Of a stretch of 64,000 nt of DNA, positions 25,797-37,558 are shown in pieces. The position numbers and the translations under genes are program-made. How positions within the stretch are numbered: position 1 is the first letter of the stretch; every line of letters starts with the position of its first letter. The DNA is taken from contig CAZAGH010000004.1 in NCBI GenBank assembly GCA_964484755.1, positions 28,170 through 92,169 of the forward strand. The letters are read 5' to 3'. The notes beneath the pieces are model-generated. The model saw only the letters and a program-made list of their open reading frames with translations. It made no database searches and was not told where the DNA came from. Origin of the DNA: an uncultured Melioribacter sp. GTDB taxonomy: Bacteria; Bacteroidota; Ignavibacteria; Kapaibacteriales; Kapaibacteriaceae.

Positions 25797-27176
25797 CTAG
25801 CCCAGCGTATAAACTGTGCCCATGCGCGGGATGATAATGCGCGCGTGCGGGAGTTGTTCGTGAAGTTCGAGAGCAAGACGTTCGCAGGCCTCGGTGTCCC
25901 CGTGTGTTATCACCACGGTTGACGGAGAAGTATCGACCGCCAACTCGATAAGATCTTCGCGCAGGGCATGTCCACTGAAGCGAAACCGTTCGATCTGACA
26001 CGTCCGAGAGACATTCTTGGCGCCGAAGACGAACGGTTTCCTCATTTCCGAGTGCATTAGTGCATAACCTGGGGTTGTCGGGTCTTGATACCCTACAAAG
26101 GCAATTCCGTAATTGGACAACCCCATCCACTGCAGAGCAAGTTGATGGGACATCGTACCTGTGTTCATCATCCCCGAGGGAGCAAGAACTATTGAGGGAT
26201 GTTTGAAGTAACCGCCTGTGTCGAGTTCGCTGCGGCGAAGGCGTTCCTGTGGGATGTCTGATACCTCGAATCCCGGACGTTTCATAGGGTCGCTGTAACA
26301 GTATTGGTCATAGATCTTATTGATCCGTACCCCCATGCCCCCTGTATAGATCGGCATGTGGGGAATACTCCCCCGCCTCATCAACCCATAGAGCAACGGG
26401 ATCATTTCCTGCAGCTTGCCGAGTGCGAAACATGGTATCAACACCGAGCCGTTGTTCTGAGAAATTCCATTGATGTACTTGGCAAGGCGTTTGGCCTCGT
26501 CGGGAAACGTTGGCGTGGTCTCAACAGCCGCATTCGTACACTCGGTGATCAAAACGTCTACATGAGACCGTGGCAGTTTGGCTTTCGGGAGCACCACCTG
26601 ATCGTCGAACTTTACGTCGGCAGTGTGCAGGATGCGAAATCCGTTGCATTCTATTCCAACGCTGGCTGAACCCAGAATATGACCAGACCAGTGGTAGGTC
26701 ATTGTCACGTTCGATCTGCCGGAGTACCCTCTGAAGGTAAGGGCCTCATCATAAGGCAACGCCTCGAAGGCGTACCGCAATTGTTCGACAACCTCTTTGT
26801 CGAAGAACTCTAACCATTGAGCAGGAAACGTGCGTCCAATCTCCGTACGAAGCAGTTTGGCCCCGTTATGCATCACCACATGACTGATATCACGTGTTGC
26901 CGGGGTCATGATAGGCCGCAGATAGGGCAGACGACGCATCACATACGGCAGAGCACCAATATGGTCTGTATGAGCATGGGTTATGGCAAGTACATCGGCT
27001 GGGTAGTTTTCCAGTAAGTCTATGTTAGGAAAAGCATTTATGCTGCGGTCGCGCGGGTGCAATCCGGCATCGATCAAGATGCCTGTACCATCGAGCTCGA
27101 GATAGCAACAATTGGCTCCGATCTCTTCGGCGCCCCCTAGTATGATACAGTTTGCTTGCACGCACAAACCTAACAC
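25797..27176 (-). CDS. MBL-fold / beta-CASP ribonuclease-like hydrolase
   Basis: ORF 25797..27233. '[13 protein letters not shown]' (HxHxDH). Beta-CASP/RNA-specificity C-terminus '[21 protein letters not shown]'. GTG at 27176 lies 8 nt after GGAGG and avoids overlapping the divergent IcmF gene. The start is uncertain. Confidence 0.8.
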
Positions 27177-27227
27177 GCGCCGAACCTCCGTAGTTTTGCC
27201 CGGTTGTCCACACCTCAGGTTACATTG

Positions 27228-28625
27228 ATGCATTCACCAGCACCATATACCCCAACAACGAAGGTTCGCGTTGTTACAGCTGCATCGTTGTTCGATGGAC
27301 ACGACGCAGCGATCAACGTGATGCGTCGCATTATCCAGGCCACAGGCTGCGAGGTCATTCACCTCGGACACAACAGATCTGTGCGCGAGGTTGTCGAGTG
27401 TGCGATCCAAGAGGACGCGCAGGCCATCGCCATGACATCCTACCAGGGCGGGCATGTGGAATACCTAACCTACATGCGACAGCTACTTGATGAGCGAGGC
27501 GCGCAGCACATCCGAATCTTCGCCGGTGGCGGTGGTACGATCCTGCCATCAGAGATCGACGAACTCCATGCAAATGGCATCACCCGTGTGTATTCACCGG
27601 ATGATGGCAGGGCAATGGGGCTGCAGGGGATGATCAACGACCTCGTACAGAAGAGCGACTTCATCTCGCCGGTTGCAGAGCCGTCATCATTGGCGACACG
27701 TGTTCGCGAAAAAGACCCTATGGCTATTGCCCAGGCCATCTCCTGCGCTGAGCGTGGTGAACACGGCGCGATAACATTTGCCGATGATGCTCGCAGGTCT
27801 CCGGTTCTTGGCATCACAGGCACTGGAGGCGCAGGCAAGTCATCGCTTACCGATGAATTGGTTCGCCGCTTTCTTCTTGACCACCCAGACAAGACAATCG
27901 CGGTTGTTAGTGTTGATCCATCGAAGCGTAAGACGGGTGGCGCCCTCCTCGGAGACCGCATCCGTATGAACGCTGTCAGCGATCGCAGAGTTTACATGCG
28001 CTCCTTTGCAACACGCGAGGCAAACGTTGCCCTTAATCCGCACGTACGGGATGCGATCAAGATCCTTTCGTATGCGCAGTATGATCTGATCATCGTCGAG
28101 ACAGCAGGTATTGGACAGAGCGACTCGCAGATCACAGAACTAGCTGATGTTGCCATGTATGTCATGACGCCTGAGTTTGGTGCCGCAACTCAGCTTGAGA
28201 AGATCGACATGATCGACTATGCAGATATCATTGCGTTGAACAAGTTCGATAAGCGTGGCGCATTGGATGCGCTACGCGATGTACGCAAACAATATCAACG
28301 CAGTCGACAGTTATTCTCGCGTTCGCTCGATGAGATGCCCGTCTACGGCACGATAGCGTCGCAGTTCAACGATCCCGGTGCGAACACGCTATATCGTGCA
28401 GTGAACGACCTGTTGGTGGAGAAGTGTTCGCTCTCATGGGAGTCATCCTATATGGTAACCGACGAAATGAGTGAGAAGATCTACATCATCCCACCAGACA
28501 GAACCCGCTACCTTGCAGAGATCGTCGAGAGTAATCGTCGCTACGATGCTTTCGTTGATGAACAATCAAACATCGCACGGTCGTTGTGGCAGGTTCGCGA
28601 AGCCATTGAGCAACTAAAGCAGTGA
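27228..28625 (+). CDS. IcmF N-terminal half: B12-binding domain fused to a MeaB-like G-protein chaperone
   Basis: ORF 27204..28625. '[40 protein letters not shown]' and '[13 protein letters not shown]' form the B12-binding domain of fused isobutyryl-CoA mutase. The GTPase has P-loop '[17 protein letters not shown]', 'ETAGIGQSD' and 'NKFD'. ATG at 27228 is preferred to TTG at 27204. Confidence 0.9.
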
Positions 28626-29968
28626 AAGCATTTTCAATCATACTTCTGCTGACTCTTGCAACAGCTCTTGTTGGCTGCGGCAGCAGTGATGCGGTTGCCC
28701 CTGATGCATCCAAAGCAACCATCCGATTTTATAACGGAAACACCGCCAGCGTTCGCGCAGAACTCAACAACAACGAACTTGTTGGTGTGCTGCTGGCCGG
28801 AGCGGTGAGCTCACGTGTCGATGTTGATCCAACAACAGACAGCGCGCTGTTTCGAGTGTTTGATGGTGCAACCAACGCGATTGTGGCTCAGCGAAGGGCT
28901 GCGATAGGCCCCCTGCCATACAGCCTTGTGCTATTTCCTGCTACCTCGGTGTTTGGTTGTGTTCGACGTCCAGAAGAATGCATTCTGCATGAAGATGCCT
29001 CACCACCTCCAGCTGGACGCGCCCGTATACGTGTGATCAATGCAACGACAGATGGCACGGAGTTTTCGTTGAAGATCGACGGTATGGAGGTACTGAAGAA
29101 TCAAGAGCTTGGTATTTGTGCGATATCGAACGTCGTAGATATCGAGGCCGGCGACCACGAAGTAACTCTCGTGCGTACGACCAACGAACAATATGCTGCA
29201 GCATATCGGATGGTTACGCTAAAGGCTGGTGTTTCCTATACATTGATGCTTTCGGGCTCCCTCTCCTTTGAAGATCGTTATGCGTTTCGTGCCCGCTTGT
29301 TTGCCGATGTCGTTGGAACGTCAGACGACGTAGATCTGTACATCCCACCGGATGTTGGGAAGTACCAGATCGTGAATGCCGTTGCTGGTTTGAAGGCGTT
29401 TGAGGTCAAGCTCGACGGTGTCGTGCGTCCTGAAACAGCAAAGGTACCGTTTGCGGAAAGCACCGGATATGTTGATCTCGAGATCGGAACACACACCACG
29501 GGTGTATTCGTCAATGGTACACCGCTCATCCAAGAAACACGAACAACGACCACGTTGCGCTCGCGCAAAACATTGTTTGTTACCGGTTCGATGGTTCCAC
29601 CGAATCTTGCTGGCATTGAAGTGGCAGATCTTGTTCAGCCCCTTTCATCAAACACCGCTACCGTGCGATTGATGAATCTCTCACCTGATGCCCCAGCGCT
29701 GGACTTCTACCGTGTCGCAAATGGGGTTGAAACCGTTATCGATGGTAGCGCGATGATGGAGTTCCGTCAGACAACGAAGACGGCAAATGGTGCAATGCAG
29801 TTCACAGAACTACCTGCCGGACGCGTGACGATTCTTGCCAAGAAAGCCAATACCTCTGTGGTGGTTCTACCTCCAACACAGGTGACACTTGTACCAGGAG
29901 AAATCTCAACGCTTTGGTTAGGGGGCTTGAGTGCCGCCGCACAACTTTACCATGTGAAACACAACTAG
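28622..29968 (+). CDS. DUF4397-repeat lipoprotein
   Basis: 448 aa. The GTG start overlaps the upstream stop (GTGA). Lipobox 'LATALVGC'. Four repeats of the DUF4397 pattern: 'ATIRFYNGN', '[21 protein letters not shown]', '[21 protein letters not shown]', '[18 protein letters not shown]'. Confidence 0.75.
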
Positions 29969-29975
29969 CAGACCA

Positions 29976-31967
29976 ATGACAACAGAGCAGACACAGACAG
30001 AAGTAGCGATCGCCGCCTTGGAGCAGCGCGCAGCTGAGCTCGAAGCAAAACTTCACCACGAAGTTCGTTCGTTGCTCGCCTCGTGGGAAGCAAAAAAGGC
30101 CGCCTACCAGGGTGAGCACTATACCTACGTGGTTCGTGGTAAAGAGATCAAAGTCAAGAATCACACCGAATCTCTAGCACACACACGTGTTCCGAAGATC
30201 GCCCTACCAAAGTTCAAAGACTGGGGAGAGATCGTCCGCTGGTGTATGCAGGAGAATGTGCCGGGCGAGTTTCCCTACACGGCCGGTGTATATCCATTCA
30301 AGCGAACCAATGAAGATCCAACACGCATGTTTGCTGGCGAGGGTGGACCCGAGCGCACGAACAAGAGGTTTCACTACTTGTCGCTTGGCATGCCGGCAGC
30401 ACGTTTGTCTACGGCCTTCGATAGCGTTACGCTCTATGGAGAAGATCCTGATTACCGCCCAGATATTTACGGCAAGATTGGTAACTCGGGCGTAAGCATT
30501 GCATCGCTCGATGATGCAAAGAAACTCTATTCCGGCTTCGATCTCTGCGCACCAACGACATCGGTATCGATGACGATCAATGGTCCAGCACCAATGCTCC
30601 TTGCATTCTTCATGAATGCCGCCATAGATCAGGAGTGCGAAAAAGTGATCCGTGAGCGCGGACTCGAACAAGAGGTTTCTGCTAAGATCGACGAGATCTA
30701 TGCTGCGAAGGGGCTTACTCGTCCCGTGTATCGTCATGGCGATGGCTCTACAGACCTACCAGAGGGCAATACTGGCCTAGGCCTCAAGCTGCTTGGTGTA
30801 ACGGGCGATCAAGTGCTCGATGCTGAGACCTACAACGCGTGTAAGCAACGTGCGCTGCAGAATGTTCGTGGAACCGTTCAGGCCGACATTCTCAAGGAAG
30901 ACCAGGCGCAGAACACCTGCATCTTTTCGACAGAGTTTGCCCTCCGCATGATGGGCGATGTTCAGAAGTACTTCATCGATGAAAGGGTTCGGAACTTCTA
31001 TTCGGTTTCGATCTCTGGCTATCATATCGCCGAGGCAGGTGCTAACCCGATCACACAGCTTGCATTCACGCTATCCAACGGATTTACCTACGTTGAGTAT
31101 TACCTCTCCCGTGGAATGCACATCGATGACTTTGCACCGAACCTTTCGTTCTTCTTCTCAAATGGCGTAGACCCAGAATACAGCGTGATCGGGCGCGTAG
31201 CACGGAAGATCTGGGCCAAGGCCATGAAGCACAAGTACGGTGGCAATGAGCGTTCTCAGATGTTGAAGTATCACATCCAAACATCAGGACGTTCACTGCA
31301 TGCTCAGGAGATCGACTTCAACGATATCCGTACGTCGCTGCAAGCTCTCTATGCCATCTACGATAATTGCAACTCGCTGCATACAAACGCGTATGATGAG
31401 GCGATCACAACACCAACAGAAGAGAGCGTACGTAGGGCGGTGGCCATCCAGCTCATCATCAATCGTGAGCTCGGACTTGCCAAGAATGAGAATCCAATCC
31501 AAGGCTCATTCATCATTGAAGAACTCACCGACCTTGTCGAAGAAGCAGTGTACATGGAGTTTCGACGCATCACAGATCGCGGTGGCGTGCTCGGTGCAAT
31601 GGAGAACATGTACCAACGCAACAAGATCCAAGAAGAGTCGCTTTACTACGAGACACTCAAGCATACAGGTGAGTATCCAATCGTTGGCGTTAATACCTTC
31701 CTGAGCTCAAAGGGAAGTCCGACCGTGATCCCAGCAGAGGTCATCCGTTCCACAACGGATGAAAAGGAACAGCAGATCAACAATGTGCGCGCTGTGCAAA
31801 CACGTAGTGGCGAGGCCACGACGCACGCTCTGAATACGTTGCGTCAGACGGCAATCCAGAATGGCAACATCTTCGAAGCGCTGATGGAAGCTGCTAAGGT
31901 GTGCTCGCTCGGACAGATGACGAATGCGCTGTATGAAGTAGGTGGACAGTATCGTCGGAACATGTAG
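29976..31967 (+). CDS. IcmF C-terminal half: acyl-CoA mutase substrate-binding (TIM-barrel) domain
   Basis: 663 aa. '[42 protein letters not shown]', '[17 protein letters not shown]' and '[27 protein letters not shown]' are typical of isobutyryl/methylmalonyl-CoA mutase large domains. Confidence 0.9.
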
Positions 31968-31978
31968 GCAAGGGGCTT

Positions 31979-32917
31979 GTGGTAACACTCGAACACATAC
32001 GCCAAGCGCACGAGCGCATACGTCCGTATGTGCATCAGACCCCTGTTCTGACGTCTCAGGCCATCAACAGCATGGTGGATGCTGACCTCCACTTCAAGTG
32101 TGAGAATCTTCAGAAAGTTGGTGCATTCAAAGCTCGTGGGGCGATGAACGCAGTTCTTCTTCTCGACGATGACATGGCGAACCGAGGTGTGGTTACCCAT
32201 TCAAGCGGAAATCATGCCCAAGCGTTGGCCTATGCTGCTAGGCTTCGCAACATTCCCTGTACGATCGTGATGCCAAACAACGCTCCGGCTGTCAAGCAGG
32301 ATGCCGTACGTGAGTATGGTGCCCAAGTCGTGTTGTGTGAGCCCACCCTTGCATCGCGCCTAGCAACCATGGAGCAGATCGTTGAGACAACAGGCGCACA
32401 CCCCGTTCCTCCGTACAACGACGAGCGTGTGATCGCTGGACAAGGAACACTGGCCCTTGAGCTGCTTGCGCAAGTCCCAACCGTAGAGGTCGTCATGGCC
32501 CCTGTTGGCGGTGGTGGATTGATGAGCGGTATCGCAACAGCAGTGCGTGGTGTGCGACCAGATACACGCATCATTGGCGCCGAGCCAGAGATTGCAGCAG
32601 ACGCATTGGAGTCAATGCAGACCGGCGTGCTCCAGCCCCCTGCCAATACCCTTACCATAGCAGACGGACTCCGTACGGGCTTGGGCGACATAACATTTGC
32701 ACATCTTCGCGCTGCCGATGTGGAGATCCTGACGGCATCGGAAGAAGCGATTCGCGAGGCAACCTACCGCATAATGGAGCGACTCAAGGTGGTGATCGAA
32801 CCCAGTGCCGCCGTAACGCTCGCCGTCCTGCTTGAACACCCCGGTATTGTGCGGGGTCGCACGGTTGCAGTTGTGTTATGCGGTGGAAACATCGATATAC
32901 GTCGATTGGCTATCTAA
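31979..32917 (+). CDS. PLP-dependent serine/threonine dehydratase family enzyme (no ACT regulatory domain)
   Basis: 312 aa with a GTG start. PLP-lysine block 'KCENLQKVGAFKARGA', 'SSGNHAQALAYAA', and glycine loop 'APVGGGGLMSG'. Confidence 0.85.
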   Translation: MVTLEHIRQAHERIRPYVHQTPVLTSQAINSMVDADLHFKCENLQKVGAFKARGAMNAVLLLDDDMANRGVVTHSSGNHAQALAYAARLRNIPCTIVMPNNAPAVKQDAVREYGAQVVLCEPTLASRLATMEQIVETTGAHPVPPYNDERVIAGQGTLALELLAQVPTVEVVMAPVGGGGLMSGIATAVRGVRPDTRIIGAEPEIAADALESMQTGVLQPPANTLTIADGLRTGLGDITFAHLRAADVEILTASEEAIREATYRIMERLKVVIEPSAAVTLAVLLEHPGIVRGRTVAVVLCGGNIDIRRLAI

Positions 32918-32980
32918 TTCGCCCTTCAACAGGCCGATTTTCCGTAGTTTTGACGTCCTTTGGACACGTACGGACACTTC

Positions 32981-34438
32981 ATGCACTCGGGCTACGAAGC
33001 AATCATTGGATTAGAGGTACACGCGCAGCTTACAACTGCGTCGAAGGCCTTTTGTTCCTGCCCCACTGAATACGGCGCCCAACCCAACGTGAACGTCTGC
33101 CCCATCTGTTTGGGGCATCCTGGTACACTTCCGGTGTTGAACGAGAATCTCGTTCGATTTGCCGTGAAAATGGGCCTTGCAACAAATTGCAGCATACGTG
33201 AACGCTCTACGTTTTCGCGGAAGAACTACTATTACCCTGACCTTCCAAAGGGCTACCAGATCACCCAGTTTGCAGACCCGATCTGTTACAAGGGGCATGT
33301 GGAGATTGAGACAGACGACGGGGTAAAGAGAATCGGAATCACGCGCATTCACATGGAAGAGGATTCTGGGAAGAGCATCCACGACCTTGATATCGACACC
33401 CTCGTGGATCTCAACCGTGCCGGCGTTCCCTTGATTGAGATCGTGAGTGAGCCGGACATCCGAACACCTCAAGAAGCCTATCTCTACCTTCAGCAGATGC
33501 GCCAGATACTGGTATATCTGGGGATATGCGACGGAAATCTTGAAGAAGGTAGCATGCGCTGCGACGCTAACATTTCTGTGCGTCCAGTTGGTCAGACCGC
33601 CTTTGGAACAAAACGAGAAGTGAAGAACCTTAACTCGTTCCGCAACGTCGAGAAGGCAATCGAATACGAGATCAACTCCCAGATTTCCACCTTAGAGTCG
33701 GGCGGAAGTATCACACAGCAAACGCTGATGTGGGACGCTGGAAACGGTCAGACCAAGGTAATGCGGTCAAAGGAACAGGCCCACGACTACCGCTACTTCC
33801 CGGAGCCAGACTTGGGGCCTGTTGTGGTATCGCAAGACTGGATGGAAGAGCTTCGCAATGAACTTCCCGAGCTCGCGCTCGATAAGAAGCGTCGGTTCAT
33901 CGCAGAGTACGGCCTACCCGCCTATGACGCCGCCATTCTGGTAGATGAAGCTTCTGTTGCATCATTCTACGAATCTGCTTGTACAGCCCTGAAGGCACCC
34001 TCCCAAGAGACTTGGAAGCTTGTAAGTAACTGGATTATGACAGAGTTACTGCGCATAAGGGGCGAGAAGAAGTGTGACATCAGTGAGGTTGGCATCTCCC
34101 CAGAGCAACTCGCATCATTAGTTGACGTGATTGCCGACGGAACGATCAGTAGTAAGACAGCAAAGGAGCTCTTTCCAGATATGCTCGGCAGCAATAAGCT
34201 TGCTGTCGAGTTCATCGAGGAACGGGGCTTGCGTCAGGTCTCTGATGTCTCAGTTCTGAAGGCCATGGTCGACGACGTGATTCGGGCTAATCCAGACAAC
34301 CTCAAAAAGTACCGCGACGGCAAAACGAACCTCCTAGGGTTCTTTGTTGGACAGGTTCTGAAGGCATCGGGGGGGTCGGCAAATCCATCCATCGTGACCG
34401 AGCTAATGAAGGAATCACTCGATGCAGTCGAGCTATAA
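32981..34438 (+). CDS. gatB: Asp-tRNA(Asn)/Glu-tRNA(Gln) amidotransferase subunit B
   Basis: ORF 32960..34438. 'YEAIIGLEVHAQL', 'CPICLGHPGTLPVLN', 'TRIHMEEDSGKS', 'RCDANISVR', and C-terminal YqeY-like 'GFFVGQVLKASGGSANP'. ATG at 32981 is preferred to TTG at 32960. Confidence 0.95.
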   Translation: MHSGYEAIIGLEVHAQLTTASKAFCSCPTEYGAQPNVNVCPICLGHPGTLPVLNENLVRFAVKMGLATNCSIRERSTFSRKNYYYPDLPKGYQITQFADPICYKGHVEIETDDGVKRIGITRIHMEEDSGKSIHDLDIDTLVDLNRAGVPLIEIVSEPDIRTPQEAYLYLQQMRQILVYLGICDGNLEEGSMRCDANISVRPVGQTAFGTKREVKNLNSFRNVEKAIEYEINSQISTLESGGSITQQTLMWDAGNGQTKVMRSKEQAHDYRYFPEPDLGPVVVSQDWMEELRNELPELALDKKRRFIAEYGLPAYDAAILVDEASVASFYESACTALKAPSQETWKLVSNWIMTELLRIRGEKKCDISEVGISPEQLASLVDVIADGTISSKTAKELFPDMLGSNKLAVEFIEERGLRQVSDVSVLKAMVDDVIRANPDNLKKYRDGKTNLLGFFVGQVLKASGGSANPSIVTELMKESLDAVEL

Positions 34439-34462
34439 TCAACGAATCAAGCGAGGTGCGTG

Positions 34463-35392
34463 ATGCCGATCACACCTACTAAGACCATCTGGAAGAACGG
34501 AACCTTTATCCCGTTCGAGAAGGCTACGATACACGTGCTCTCGCACGTTGTGCATTACGGCTCATCGTGGTTTGAGGGTATACGTTGTTACGATACAGAT
34601 CAAGGTCCAGCCATTTTTCGTCTGCATGAGCACATGCGCAGGCTGCATCACTCACTCAAGGTGTACCGGTCACAGCTTCCGTTCTCAGTTGATGAACTCT
34701 CCGAGGCGGCCGTAGACCTTGTAAAGCGCAACAAGCTAGGCCGTTGCTACATACGTCCGTTCGCCCTTCGCGGCTTTGGCGACATGGGAGTCTACGGACT
34801 TAGGTGTCCACTAGACGTATACATCGCCGCTTGGGAGTGGGGCGCTTACCTCGGTGACGATGCCGCTTCCAACGGTGTAGACGTCTGCGTCTCATCATGG
34901 GATCGCATAACGCCCAATGCCATGCCATCGCTTGCAAAGGCTGGCGGTAACTACATGAATTCACAGCTTGTGAAGATGGAGGCCGTTGAGAATGGATACG
35001 CCGAAGGCATCTGCCTAGACTCATACGGCAATGTGGCTGAGGGCTCCGGCGAGAACGTCTTTATTGTGATCGATAATGAACTCATCACGCCCCCTGCAGC
35101 AACCTCATTGTTGCCCGGCATCACGCGTGACACCGTGATTACTCTTGCGCAGGAGCTTGGCATCACGATTCGTGAACAAAACATCCCTCGTGCGATGTTG
35201 TACGTGGCTGATGAGATGTTTCTGACGGGAACTGCGAGTGAGATCGCCCCGGTTACGTCAGTTGATCGAATTGCAGTAGGTCGTGGAAAGGTCGGACCGA
35301 TGACGCGTGCGCTGCAGCAGGCATTCCACAACATCACCGTTGCCGGTGAGGATCCATACGGGTGGCTAACCTTCATCAAGAAGAGCCGATAA
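34463..35392 (+). CDS. ilvE: branched-chain-amino-acid aminotransferase
   Basis: About 309 aa. 'IWKNGTFIPFEKATIHVLSHVVHYGSSWFEGIRCY', 'KAGGNYMNSQL', 'GENVFIV', 'LPGITRDTVI', 'MFLTGTASEIAPV'. Confidence 0.93.
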   Translation: MPITPTKTIWKNGTFIPFEKATIHVLSHVVHYGSSWFEGIRCYDTDQGPAIFRLHEHMRRLHHSLKVYRSQLPFSVDELSEAAVDLVKRNKLGRCYIRPFALRGFGDMGVYGLRCPLDVYIAAWEWGAYLGDDAASNGVDVCVSSWDRITPNAMPSLAKAGGNYMNSQLVKMEAVENGYAEGICLDSYGNVAEGSGENVFIVIDNELITPPAATSLLPGITRDTVITLAQELGITIREQNIPRAMLYVADEMFLTGTASEIAPVTSVDRIAVGRGKVGPMTRALQQAFHNITVAGEDPYGWLTFIKKSR

Positions 35393-35428
35393 CAACGAAA
35401 TAACAATCGACGAAATCAGGAGAACACC

Positions 35429-37558
35429 ATGGCGAAGGCCAAGGCAAAAACACCACCAGCAAAGAAGTCCACACCAGCAAAAGCTCCGGCAAAGAATGCA
35501 CCTGCGGCACCACCGGTAGAGCTCTTCAACCTCAAGGGTATCAAGCCCGAGGTTCTGCTTGAGTGGTACAAGACCCAACATCTTGGGCGCAGGCTTGACG
35601 AAAAGGCTGCCAACTACCTTAAGATGGCCAAGGGCTGGTCGTATCATGCCCCGTTTGCCGGACACGACGGTATTCAGCTGGCGCTAGGGAAGGTGTTCCG
35701 TCCGGGTAAGGACTTCCTCTTCCCCTACTACCGCGACATGCTCACATCGCTGGCCGCTGGTGTAACAGTTGAGGAGATCATTGCTAATGGTCTTTCGAAG
35801 GATGCCGATGTAGCCGGTGGTGGACGCCACATGAGCAACCACTTCGCCAAGATCTCGATCAATCTCCAGAACTCATCTTCCTGTACAGGAAATCACTCAC
35901 AACAGGCTGTGGGTACGGCCCGTTCGATCAAGAAGTTCAAGGGTGATGAGGTGGTGTTCTGTTCAACAGGTGACAGCACAACATCCGAAGGATACTACTA
36001 CGAATCCGTCAATGGCGCAGACCGTGAGAAGCTTCCTGTTGTTTTTGTGATTCAAAACAACAAGTACGGCATCTCCGTACCACTTCATGAGCAGACAGCC
36101 AACCCCGTGGTTGCAGAGAACTTTAGCGGCTTTACAAACCTGAAGATCTTCTACTGCGACGGCCGTGATCCGGTTGACTCATACAAGACCATGGTCGCTG
36201 CCCGCGACTATGCCGCCAGCGGCAAGGGGCCAGCAATGGTCCACGCAGATTGCGATCGCATCGGATCGCACTCTAACTCGGACAACCACGAGCTGTATCG
36301 CACGAAAGAAGACATCGACGCGATGAAGCAGCGCGACCCGCTTCCGCGGATGCGTGCATCGCTGATCGCTGCCGGTATAGCAACAGACGCCGAGTTAACG
36401 GCCATGGAAGAAGCAAACAAGCAGGCCATTTTTGCTGCTGCAGATGCTGTAGAGCCCCTTCCAGATCCAGATCCAGCGTCGTACGTTGAATATCTGCTCC
36501 CTGAGGCAGTCGTTGGCTACAACGATGATTCGGAAGCTCGCGTAACACCGGCTCCAGACGCACCGATCGTGACGTTCCGCGAAGGAATTGTTAATGCCAT
36601 GCACGAGGAGTTCCGTCGTAACCCGAGCACATTTCTGTTTGGACAAGACGTTGCCTCGCACAAGAAGCAGGGCATTTTTAACGTTTGTAAAGGCATGCTT
36701 GACGAGTTCGGTAACGAACGCGTGTTCAATGCACCGATTGCTGAGGACTTCATCGTTGGTACGGCCAATGGTATGACGCGCTACCGTGATGATATCCGCG
36801 TGGTTGTCGAAGGAGCGGAGTTTGCCGACTACTTCTGGCCGGCCATGGAGCAGCTCATCGAGTGTACGCATGATTACTGGCGTACGCGTGGACAGTTTTC
36901 ACCGGCCGTTGTAATCCGTCTTGCGTCGGGTGGATACATCCAGGGTGGATTGTACCATTCGCAGAACTTGGAAGGTACATTCACAACCCTACCAGGCCTC
37001 CGTGTGGTTTGTCCGGCATTTGCCGATGACGCAGTTGGCCTAATGCGCAACGCTATTCGGTCGCGCGGCACCACAATGTATCTCGAACCAAAATTCCTCT
37101 ACAACTACCGTCCAACATCTGCCCCTATGCCGGCAGAAGACTTCATTATCCCGTTTGGCAAGGCAAAGATTCGCAGGGCTGGTAGCAGTCTTACCATCGT
37201 AAGCTATGGCACAGCCGTGCATTGGAGTCTGCAAGCTGCTGAACAACTTTCAGCAGAAGGAATTGACGTAGAAGTGATCGACTTGCGTTCGCTCGCCCCT
37301 TGGGACAAAGACATGGTCTTTGAAAGCGTCAAGCGAACCGGACGTTGTGTTGTGGCCCATGAAGACAAAAAGACTGGCGGTTTTGGTGGTGAGATTGCTT
37401 CTTCGATCAGCGAGGAACTCTTCCGCTATCTTGACGCACCTGTGGCCCGCATCGGATCCAAGGACACGCCTGTTGGCTTTGCGAAGAGCCTTGAACAAGC
37501 GATCCTTCTCAATGTGAATGATATTGTTTCGGCGGTTCGTACGACGATGTCGTTCTAA
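35429..37558 (+). CDS. fused E1 alpha/beta 2-oxoacid (branched-chain type) dehydrogenase, TPP-dependent, with a K/A/P-rich N-terminal tail
   Basis: 709 aa. AGGAGA lies 5 nt upstream of the ATG. Tail: 'MAKAKAKTPPAKKSTPAKAPAKNAPAAPP'. Alpha part TPP motif: 'GDSTTSEGYYYESVNGADREKLPVVFVIQNNKYGIS'. Beta part: 'NERVFNAPIAEDFIVGTANGM' and 'VIDLRSLAPWD'. Confidence 0.88.
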   Translation: MAKAKAKTPPAKKSTPAKAPAKNAPAAPPVELFNLKGIKPEVLLEWYKTQHLGRRLDEKAANYLKMAKGWSYHAPFAGHDGIQLALGKVFRPGKDFLFPYYRDMLTSLAAGVTVEEIIANGLSKDADVAGGGRHMSNHFAKISINLQNSSSCTGNHSQQAVGTARSIKKFKGDEVVFCSTGDSTTSEGYYYESVNGADREKLPVVFVIQNNKYGISVPLHEQTANPVVAENFSGFTNLKIFYCDGRDPVDSYKTMVAARDYAASGKGPAMVHADCDRIGSHSNSDNHELYRTKEDIDAMKQRDPLPRMRASLIAAGIATDAELTAMEEANKQAIFAAADAVEPLPDPDPASYVEYLLPEAVVGYNDDSEARVTPAPDAPIVTFREGIVNAMHEEFRRNPSTFLFGQDVASHKKQGIFNVCKGMLDEFGNERVFNAPIAEDFIVGTANGMTRYRDDIRVVVEGAEFADYFWPAMEQLIECTHDYWRTRGQFSPAVVIRLASGGYIQGGLYHSQNLEGTFTTLPGLRVVCPAFADDAVGLMRNAIRSRGTTMYLEPKFLYNYRPTSAPMPAEDFIIPFGKAKIRRAGSSLTIVSYGTAVHWSLQAAEQLSAEGIDVEVIDLRSLAPWDKDMVFESVKRTGRCVVAHEDKKTGGFGGEIASSISEELFRYLDAPVARIGSKDTPVGFAKSLEQAILLNVNDIVSAVRTTMSF

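Follow-up and report, generated by a model that had tools for sequence, protein, structure and literature searches.

How does a gene for an envelope lipoprotein come to lie between the two halves of a cytoplasmic, B12-dependent enzyme? The question is raised by a locus on a 64,000-nucleotide stretch of contig CAZAGH010000004.1 (assembly GCA_964484755.1; this whole stretch is called the window below) from an uncultured Melioribacter sp., in which the fused isobutyryl-CoA mutase IcmF is encoded by two genes separated by a third one, of the DUF4397 family. IcmF is a model for the way in which a G-protein chaperone loads and repairs the B12 cofactor of a mutase, and its defining trait is the covalent fusion of chaperone and mutase. 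A preliminary description of the locus had suggested that it may record the fission of a gene by insertion, or else a functional link between lipoprotein and enzyme, such as cobalamin acquisition. Our comparison with related genomes shows that the split of the enzyme is older than the insert, whichever history of gain and loss is adopted for the latter, and that the insert most likely did not cause the fission. The explanation that we consider probable is that of an old two-subunit IcmF, between the genes of which a DUF4397 passenger was inserted later.

Positions 27204-31967 of the window are filled by three tightly packed open reading frames (ORFs), all on the + strand. The first encodes the N-terminal part of IcmF (N-half, 27228..28625), which comprises the cobalamin-binding domain, a G-protein domain of the MeaB type and ~40 residues from the beginning of the linker. 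At its longest, this ORF begins with a TTG at 27204; the likely start is the ATG at 27228, which is favoured both by the 465-aa gene calls in databases and by the alignment with relatives. The second gene (28622..29968) encodes a 448-aa lipoprotein with four immunoglobulin (Ig)-like beta-sandwich modules, which we interpret as a passenger, and the third (29976..31967) encodes the C-terminal part of IcmF (C-half), 663 aa comprising the remainder of the linker and the substrate-binding triosephosphate isomerase (TIM) barrel. The GTG start of the lipoprotein gene shares bases with the TGA stop of the N-half (caGTGAaa, overlap at 28622..28625), and the ATGA present at the same position in close relatives supports this start. 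The three-gene layout and the GTGA overlap given in the preliminary description are thus confirmed by the ORFs and the sequence; the close spacing that it reported ahead of the C-half also stands, except that the TAG stop of the lipoprotein gene and the following ATG are separated by 7 nt (cagacca, 29969..29975) and not by 8.

The two outer genes had been taken for the halves of an IcmF, and they are indeed collinear with the fused enzyme over all of its modules. Pfam identifies B12-binding and MeaB domains in the N-half and an MM_CoA_mutase domain (PF01642) in the C-half. On NF045497, the NCBIfam equivalog model of IcmF (1076 positions), the N-half spans positions 2-465 with 661.6 bits and the C-half the remainder up to position 1076 with 1105.7 bits; the 1500-bit cut-off of this model, which applies to a single polypeptide, is reached by neither half alone and exceeded by their summed score of 1767. 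Among PDB chains, the IcmF of Cupriavidus metallidurans (4xc6) is matched by the N-half over chain residues 42-504 (E 2e-150) and by the C-half over residues 512-1113 (E 2e-264), while MeaB-type chains (1e-31), HcmA (2e-78), HcmB and the chains of methylmalonyl-CoA mutase (MCM) all give far weaker matches. The two genes are of IcmF type and not of IcmA/IcmB/MeaI type. In the N-half, the axial histidine motif (SLFDGHDA), the P-loop (GTGGAGKSS) and the NKFD motif align with their C. metallidurans counterparts, the latter two being identical. In the C-half, a phenylalanine (PTRMFAGEG) and a glutamine (DQAQNT) align with Phe598 and Gln742 of that enzyme; these are the substrate residues typical of isobutyryl-CoA mutases (ICMs), which replace the tyrosine and arginine of MCM.

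Alignment with the full-length enzyme also places the break point. Once the 20-residue tag offset of the 1113-residue tagged chain of 4xc6 is subtracted, the break maps to about native residue 484/492 of the C. metallidurans IcmF, ~40 residues into the linker. That enzyme has been described as two rigid bodies, formed by residues 22-442 (cobalamin-binding and G-protein domains) and 443-1093 (linker and substrate domain) (2023 JBC, PMC10481361). Domain identity and break position together mark the two genes as the halves of an IcmF, which would be a two-subunit enzyme. The halves presumably assemble non-covalently into an equivalent of the fused enzyme, and the two-chain enzyme would interconvert isobutyryl-CoA and butyryl-CoA, in a valine or branched-chain context that is suggested by the genes for IlvE and for the E1 component of a 2-oxoacid dehydrogenase downstream. 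An intein or a programmed readthrough that would join the halves was considered and rejected, as frame 0 is full of stop codons across the insert and the middle gene lies in another frame, with a Pfam family of its own.

The arrangement can be set against those of known mutases. Fused IcmFs (4xc6/8ssl; NF045497) have the same order of cobalamin-binding domain, MeaB-like G-protein domain, linker and substrate barrel, with collinearity over the full length, whereas here this order is distributed over two polypeptides with an unrelated gene between them, and the barrel carries an additional insertion of ~50 aa. In the IcmA/IcmB plus MeaI system of Streptomyces, in HcmA/HcmB/MeaH and in MCM/MeaB, the small cobalamin-binding subunit and the G-protein are separate, while in our locus they are fused; moreover, unlike in IcmA/IcmB-, HcmA/HcmB- and MCM-type systems, both halves bear pieces of the IcmF linker, and phylogeny nests them among fused IcmFs. 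The barrel insertion occupies residues ~232-290 of the C-half (window 30669-30845; query 232-290 against chain residues 731-740). In every relative, whether its IcmF is fused or split, the match to the IcmF model falls into two stretches interrupted at about position 694, so that this insertion looks lineage-wide.

To place the split and the insert in time, 40 relatives were searched with the IcmF model, and the loci were fetched and annotated. Fused, split and split-plus-insert states were all encountered. A fused IcmF is present in seven genomes, which represent four further families of the order. In another seven, belonging to at least six other families, the enzyme is split and its halves either sit on separate contigs or are 5-15 kb from one another; none of these families has a DUF4397 gene between the two halves. 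In most genomes of the window's genus the split halves are ~1.35 kb apart, within a synteny block that consists of a Kre9-like gene of the type IX secretion system (T9SS), a beta-CASP gene on the opposite strand, the N-half, optionally the DUF4397 gene, the C-half, a PALP dehydratase gene, gatB and ilvE. The DUF4397 ortholog is present in 24 of the 29 species genomes of the genus, in one copy and always between the halves, so that its position among relatives is fixed rather than variable; two public contigs whose N-halves are more divergent (identity 70% and 74%) have the N-DUF4397-C order too. In four congeners (G007, G011, G020 and G022) the halves are only 11-14 nt apart and the ortholog is found nowhere in the genome, that is, it is absent and not relocated. 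Overall, the ortholog is confined to one genus-level clade among the 13 genera sampled. An alignment around the break shows that all split genomes are broken in one and the same variable loop, which is shortest in the fused relatives. N-halves that stand alone, 465-475 aa long and with the two Pfam domains, are numerous in public data, where they are labelled as Kapabacteria, Ignavibacteria or Bacteroidetes metagenome-assembled genome (MAG) proteins; the two-chain IcmF is thus already in databases as separate gene calls, and we found no description of a split IcmF in the literature that we searched.

Two genomes depart from these patterns. In G002, of the same genus and rated 99% complete, neither the IcmF halves nor gatB give a match at E <= 1e-50; either this genome has lost the syntenic block as a whole, or the assembly lacks it, possibly because of a gap. 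In G033 (family f10, locus L047, 100% complete), the N-half is found with an E value of 2.5e-200, and the matches listed contain no IcmF-type C-half, only an MCM-like paralog; its N-half may pair with a different barrel, or the C-half may have been missed.

The direction of change is given by a tree of full-length IcmF, which included fused representatives from an exhaustive library. A library of representatives at 50% identity is unsuited to counts of split and fused forms, since the conserved barrel merges both and many entries are fragments, and its fused full-length representatives were used as outgroups only. All split forms fall in one clade (support 100/99) nested deep in a diversity of IcmFs that is otherwise fused only, which indicates that the split form is a derived fission and not a relic of the state before fusion. 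Within this clade, the fused IcmFs of G032, G037, G038 and G028 group with the split one of G026. The approximately unbiased (AU) test rejects the hypothesis that the split forms are monophyletic (p 0.009), so the linker must have been broken or re-fused at least twice. The same linker break is met without the insert both in at least six families and in the four congeners, which speaks against the suggested gene fission by insertion and makes the insert dispensable for a split IcmF.

A bacterial order with a two-chain IcmF that is well conserved and under strong purifying selection amounts to a natural experiment on the enzyme. The natural split points to a place where the linker tolerates a break, and the covalent linkage of G-protein and barrel would be dispensable if the halves assemble as we suppose. 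The split halves also constitute ready-made constructs for studies of domain opening and oligomerisation.

We next turn to the middle gene. Its product matches DUF4397 (PF14344) in three stretches with 99.9 bits, against a gathering cut-off of 30.6, and an AlphaFold2 model (mean predicted local distance difference test score, pLDDT, 79) consists of four beta-sandwich modules. The translation begins with a signal peptide (28622..28678) ending in the lipobox LVGC, the cysteine of which, Cys19, has its codon at 28676-28678. Signal peptide and lipobox cysteine are kept in 20 of 20 orthologs examined, and the cysteine is nearly invariant in an alignment of 18 sequences (alignment A1). The earlier assignment of a real lipoprotein with an LVGC lipobox and four DUF4397 repeats is thus well founded, and the protein is predicted to be exported and lipidated. 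In the subclade of the window, the residues that follow the lipobox cysteine (+2 to +6, window 28679-28693) are conserved in the pattern C-[SG]-[GS]-S-D; the acidic residue near the cysteine resembles the export signal of Bacteroidota lipoproteins for surface exposure. In the third module, a near-invariant block (residues 282-328, window 29465..29605) holds in alignment A1 down to a homolog of 39% identity, and is probably a functional site of the lipoprotein.

The gene evolves rapidly and under constraint. Orthologs within the genus have diverged down to 32-33% identity. In seven close species pairs, the ratio of nonsynonymous to synonymous substitution rates (dN/dS) is 0.05-0.16 for DUF4397, compared with 0.017-0.05 for the N-half, 0.012-0.027 for the C-half and 0.046-0.10 for the PALP gene; these values indicate that the lipoprotein is functional and selected, and that it changes about as fast as non-core genes ordinarily do. 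Every genome of the order carries several copies of PF14344, and the family occurs on three other contigs of the window's own genome. With other DUF4397 envelope proteins, the product shares tandem beta-sandwich repeats of ~100 aa and membership of a multi-copy family; it differs from them in that its ortholog group is restricted to one genus, has the form of a lipoprotein of 448 aa, has a near-invariant motif of its own, and is found at one fixed position within the IcmF operon. To our knowledge the DUF4397 family has no known function, and none of the papers listed for the term DUF4397 deals with its function.

The lipoprotein gene is probably expressed together with the enzyme. At the junction with the N-half, most of the genus has an ATGA or GTGA overlap, while TAATG stands there in two genomes and the genes are 4-35 nt apart in three; between the lipoprotein stop and the C-half start, the distance is mostly 4-9 nt in the genus, the two codons abutting (0 nt) in G044 and lying 88 nt apart on contig P0119. 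Conserved overlapping or near-abutting stop and start codons, by which translational coupling is recognised, are thus present. In most genomes there is no room for a separate promoter or terminator, and so the lipoprotein gene most likely lies on the transcript of the IcmF operon. Scans for sigma-70 promoters and intrinsic terminators gave counts at chance level, and the Bacteroidetes-type promoter TTTG...TAnnTTTG had no match in the operon, each being weak evidence either way. Co-transcription and coupling are thus predicted from overlaps and spacing, and a single transcript with termination-reinitiation at both junctions would be the most economical reading.

As for the history of the insert, each clade of the host tree is recovered in the DUF4397 tree, although its branches are 5-10 times longer; this agreement argues for one insertion followed by vertical descent. 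The four species without insert form one clade among the insert-bearers in all three maximum likelihood (ML) trees, built from IcmF, from gatB (rooted on 11 outgroup families) and from the concatenation. The history that we favour, although it is not proven, has DUF4397 gained at the root of the genus and lost once afterwards. Around the insert, a search for footprints of mobile elements revealed only short chance repeats, and the insert has no anomaly in GC content.

These elements can be combined in the following scenario. A fused ancestor would have been split at a permissive linker loop in this Kapabacteria-type order, independently of the DUF4397 gene, giving one subunit with the cobalamin-binding and G-protein chaperone domains and another with the remaining linker and the substrate barrel. 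One paralog of the multi-copy DUF4397 family would then have inserted once into a spacer of ~12 nt, most likely in the ancestor of the genus, and have been inherited vertically ever since, with purifying selection acting on a fast-evolving sequence; a single deletion probably removed it in the four-species clade. The lipoprotein would be expressed from the IcmF transcript by termination-reinitiation at the ATGA or GTGA, and then be exported and lipidated. We infer that it is a passenger of the operon with an envelope function of its own, and not a partner of the enzyme.

Part of the data weighs against this scenario. In two of the three AU tests, those with gatB and with the concatenated markers, a single gain later than the divergence of the no-insert clade is not rejected. 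The gene has retained one site and its start overlap across the genus despite an ortholog identity that falls to 32-33%, together with a near-invariant motif, and such retention could reflect selected co-expression with IcmF. Finally, envelope or secreted-protein genes recur beside or between the halves in three lineages, a suggestive pattern that a purely neutral passenger model leaves unexplained.

The first of these points concerns only the timing of the insertion: the adjacent state without insert would be ancestral, and DUF4397 would have been gained once, after the four-species clade had branched, without any loss. This history would be the most parsimonious one if the four-species clade were basal, and when all insert-bearers are constrained to form one clade, the AU test gives p values of 0.117 (gatB) and 0.094 (concatenated markers). 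All three ML trees, however, nest the no-insert clade among insert-bearers, and the test with IcmF rejects the constraint (p 0.008, a value weakened by the fact that the groups were named after the first tree had been seen). We regard a single late gain as a real, if minority, possibility, under which the lipoprotein gene would still be a passenger in an operon already split.

The second point is what a functional partnership would predict. In such a partnership, the lipoprotein would be co-expressed with IcmF for a shared physiology, for example cobalamin capture, or the uptake or sensing of branched- or short-chain substrates. Its conserved position and start overlap, maintained while the protein diverged to ~33% identity, and its purifying selection and near-invariant motif are in keeping with this idea, and Bacteroidota use surface lipoproteins (BtuG/BtuH) for B12 capture. 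Like these, the product of our gene is a lipoprotein of a Bacteroidota-related host encoded beside a B12-dependent gene; unlike them, it has neither a propeller fold, nor a cobalamin riboswitch, nor an adjacent TonB-dependent receptor, and it is dispensable in congeners. No Rfam family, cobalamin riboswitches included, was detected in the 64-kb window. The best PDB matches of the lipoprotein model in Foldseek are the extracellular Ig-like domains of PepT1/2, CBM41/26 modules, pilins and putative adhesins, with no cobalamin binder or enzyme among them, and the DUF4397 profile gave only chance-level matches to PDB sequences; a tandem Ig-like fold is not that of a BtuG-type propeller or of a periplasmic binding protein. 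In addition, four species and all the other families have a split IcmF without the gene, and in these genomes the members of the multi-copy DUF4397 family are as a rule not linked to B12 genes. The cobalamin-acquisition link raised at the outset thus finds no support in riboswitch, fold or distribution, and we consider a partnership, of this or another kind, unlikely.

The third point could be accounted for if the gap between the half-genes were a long-lived 'growth point' that has time and again captured genes for envelope or secreted proteins (DUF4397 here; NlpC/P60 with giant T9SS proteins, and IgGFc-binding-like proteins, elsewhere), either because such an insertion caused the original fission or because co-expression of surface proteins with the branched-chain/B12 operon is selected. 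In that case, the role of the DUF4397 lipoprotein would be tied to IcmF physiology. In G034, the 15-kb gap between the halves holds three giant IgGFc-binding-like proteins and a lipocalin-like lipoprotein. We think that such recurring envelope genes mainly show that the operon tolerates passengers, and the growth point itself seems to us unlikely.

Other envelope-related neighbours of the IcmF genes were noted during the survey. In MAGs labelled 'Bacteroidetes bacterium' (L076 7413-7982; L079 7410-7979), a standalone N-half is followed by an NlpC/P60 gene, the start of which overlaps it or is 5 nt off; in this lineage giant GEVED/Ig proteins of the T9SS type come after NlpC/P60, and the C-half is not adjacent. 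A PG_binding_1 gene of ~255 aa lies between the C-half and the PALP dehydratase gene in G005 (L016 2218-2988) and in L074/L075 (10810-11577), and on contig P0131 its start abuts the stop of the C-half. Gaps of 742-816 nt suggest that it is also present in G009, G041, G008 and G017, while G044, the no-insert clade and the clade of the window all lack such a gap. This gene would be a second envelope-related passenger of the operon.

Fission by insertion, in its full form, would have a DUF4397-type envelope gene land in the linker region of a still fused icmF, in the common ancestor from which all split lineages descend, with later loss or replacement of the insert elsewhere and drifting apart of the halves. 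The insert does lie exactly at the break, other envelope or secreted-protein genes are found between or after the halves in other families, and a collinear, four-repeat DUF4397 homolog of 448 aa exists in family f7 (G030). This homolog, however, is only 23% identical, is devoid of the invariant block, and is surrounded by T9SS, ClpX-like and OmpA/VWA genes, far from both IcmF halves. The restriction of the true ortholog to a single genus-level clade would require at least five independent losses, the four congeners have cleanly adjacent halves, and the IcmF tree needs at least two fission or fusion events without involvement of DUF4397. We therefore judge this origin of the split very improbable.

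An artefact or decay, be it an assembly or frameshift error or a pseudogene interrupted by insertion, might have been suspected in a draft genome of 204 contigs, but the arrangement is shared by 24 independent species assemblies and by additional metagenome contigs, and each half has its own start and stop, intact catalytic and binding motifs and a dN/dS of 0.012-0.05, so that conservation effectively refutes this reading and its probability is negligible.

Whatever its precise date, the insertion of DUF4397 probably does not represent a new mechanism. It offers a clear and datable case of a foreign gene placed between coupled enzyme genes and retained for a long time, and is thus useful for the study of operon evolution.

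The surroundings of the three genes are also conserved. Upstream, a gene for a beta-CASP, RNase J-like metallo-beta-lactamase (25797..27233, - strand), recognised from its ORF and from the Pfam families on an orthologous contig, is divergent from the N-half and marks the upstream boundary of the operon; its position is kept in all loci of the genus. Downstream, on the + strand (31979..37558), follow genes for a PALP-family threonine/serine dehydratase, gatB, ilvE and a fused E1 alpha/beta 2-oxoacid dehydrogenase, which form the branched-chain context of IcmF. The order gatB-ilvE-E1(alpha/beta) (window 32960-37558; loci L055-L073) is kept in most of the families sampled, wherever the IcmF halves lie.

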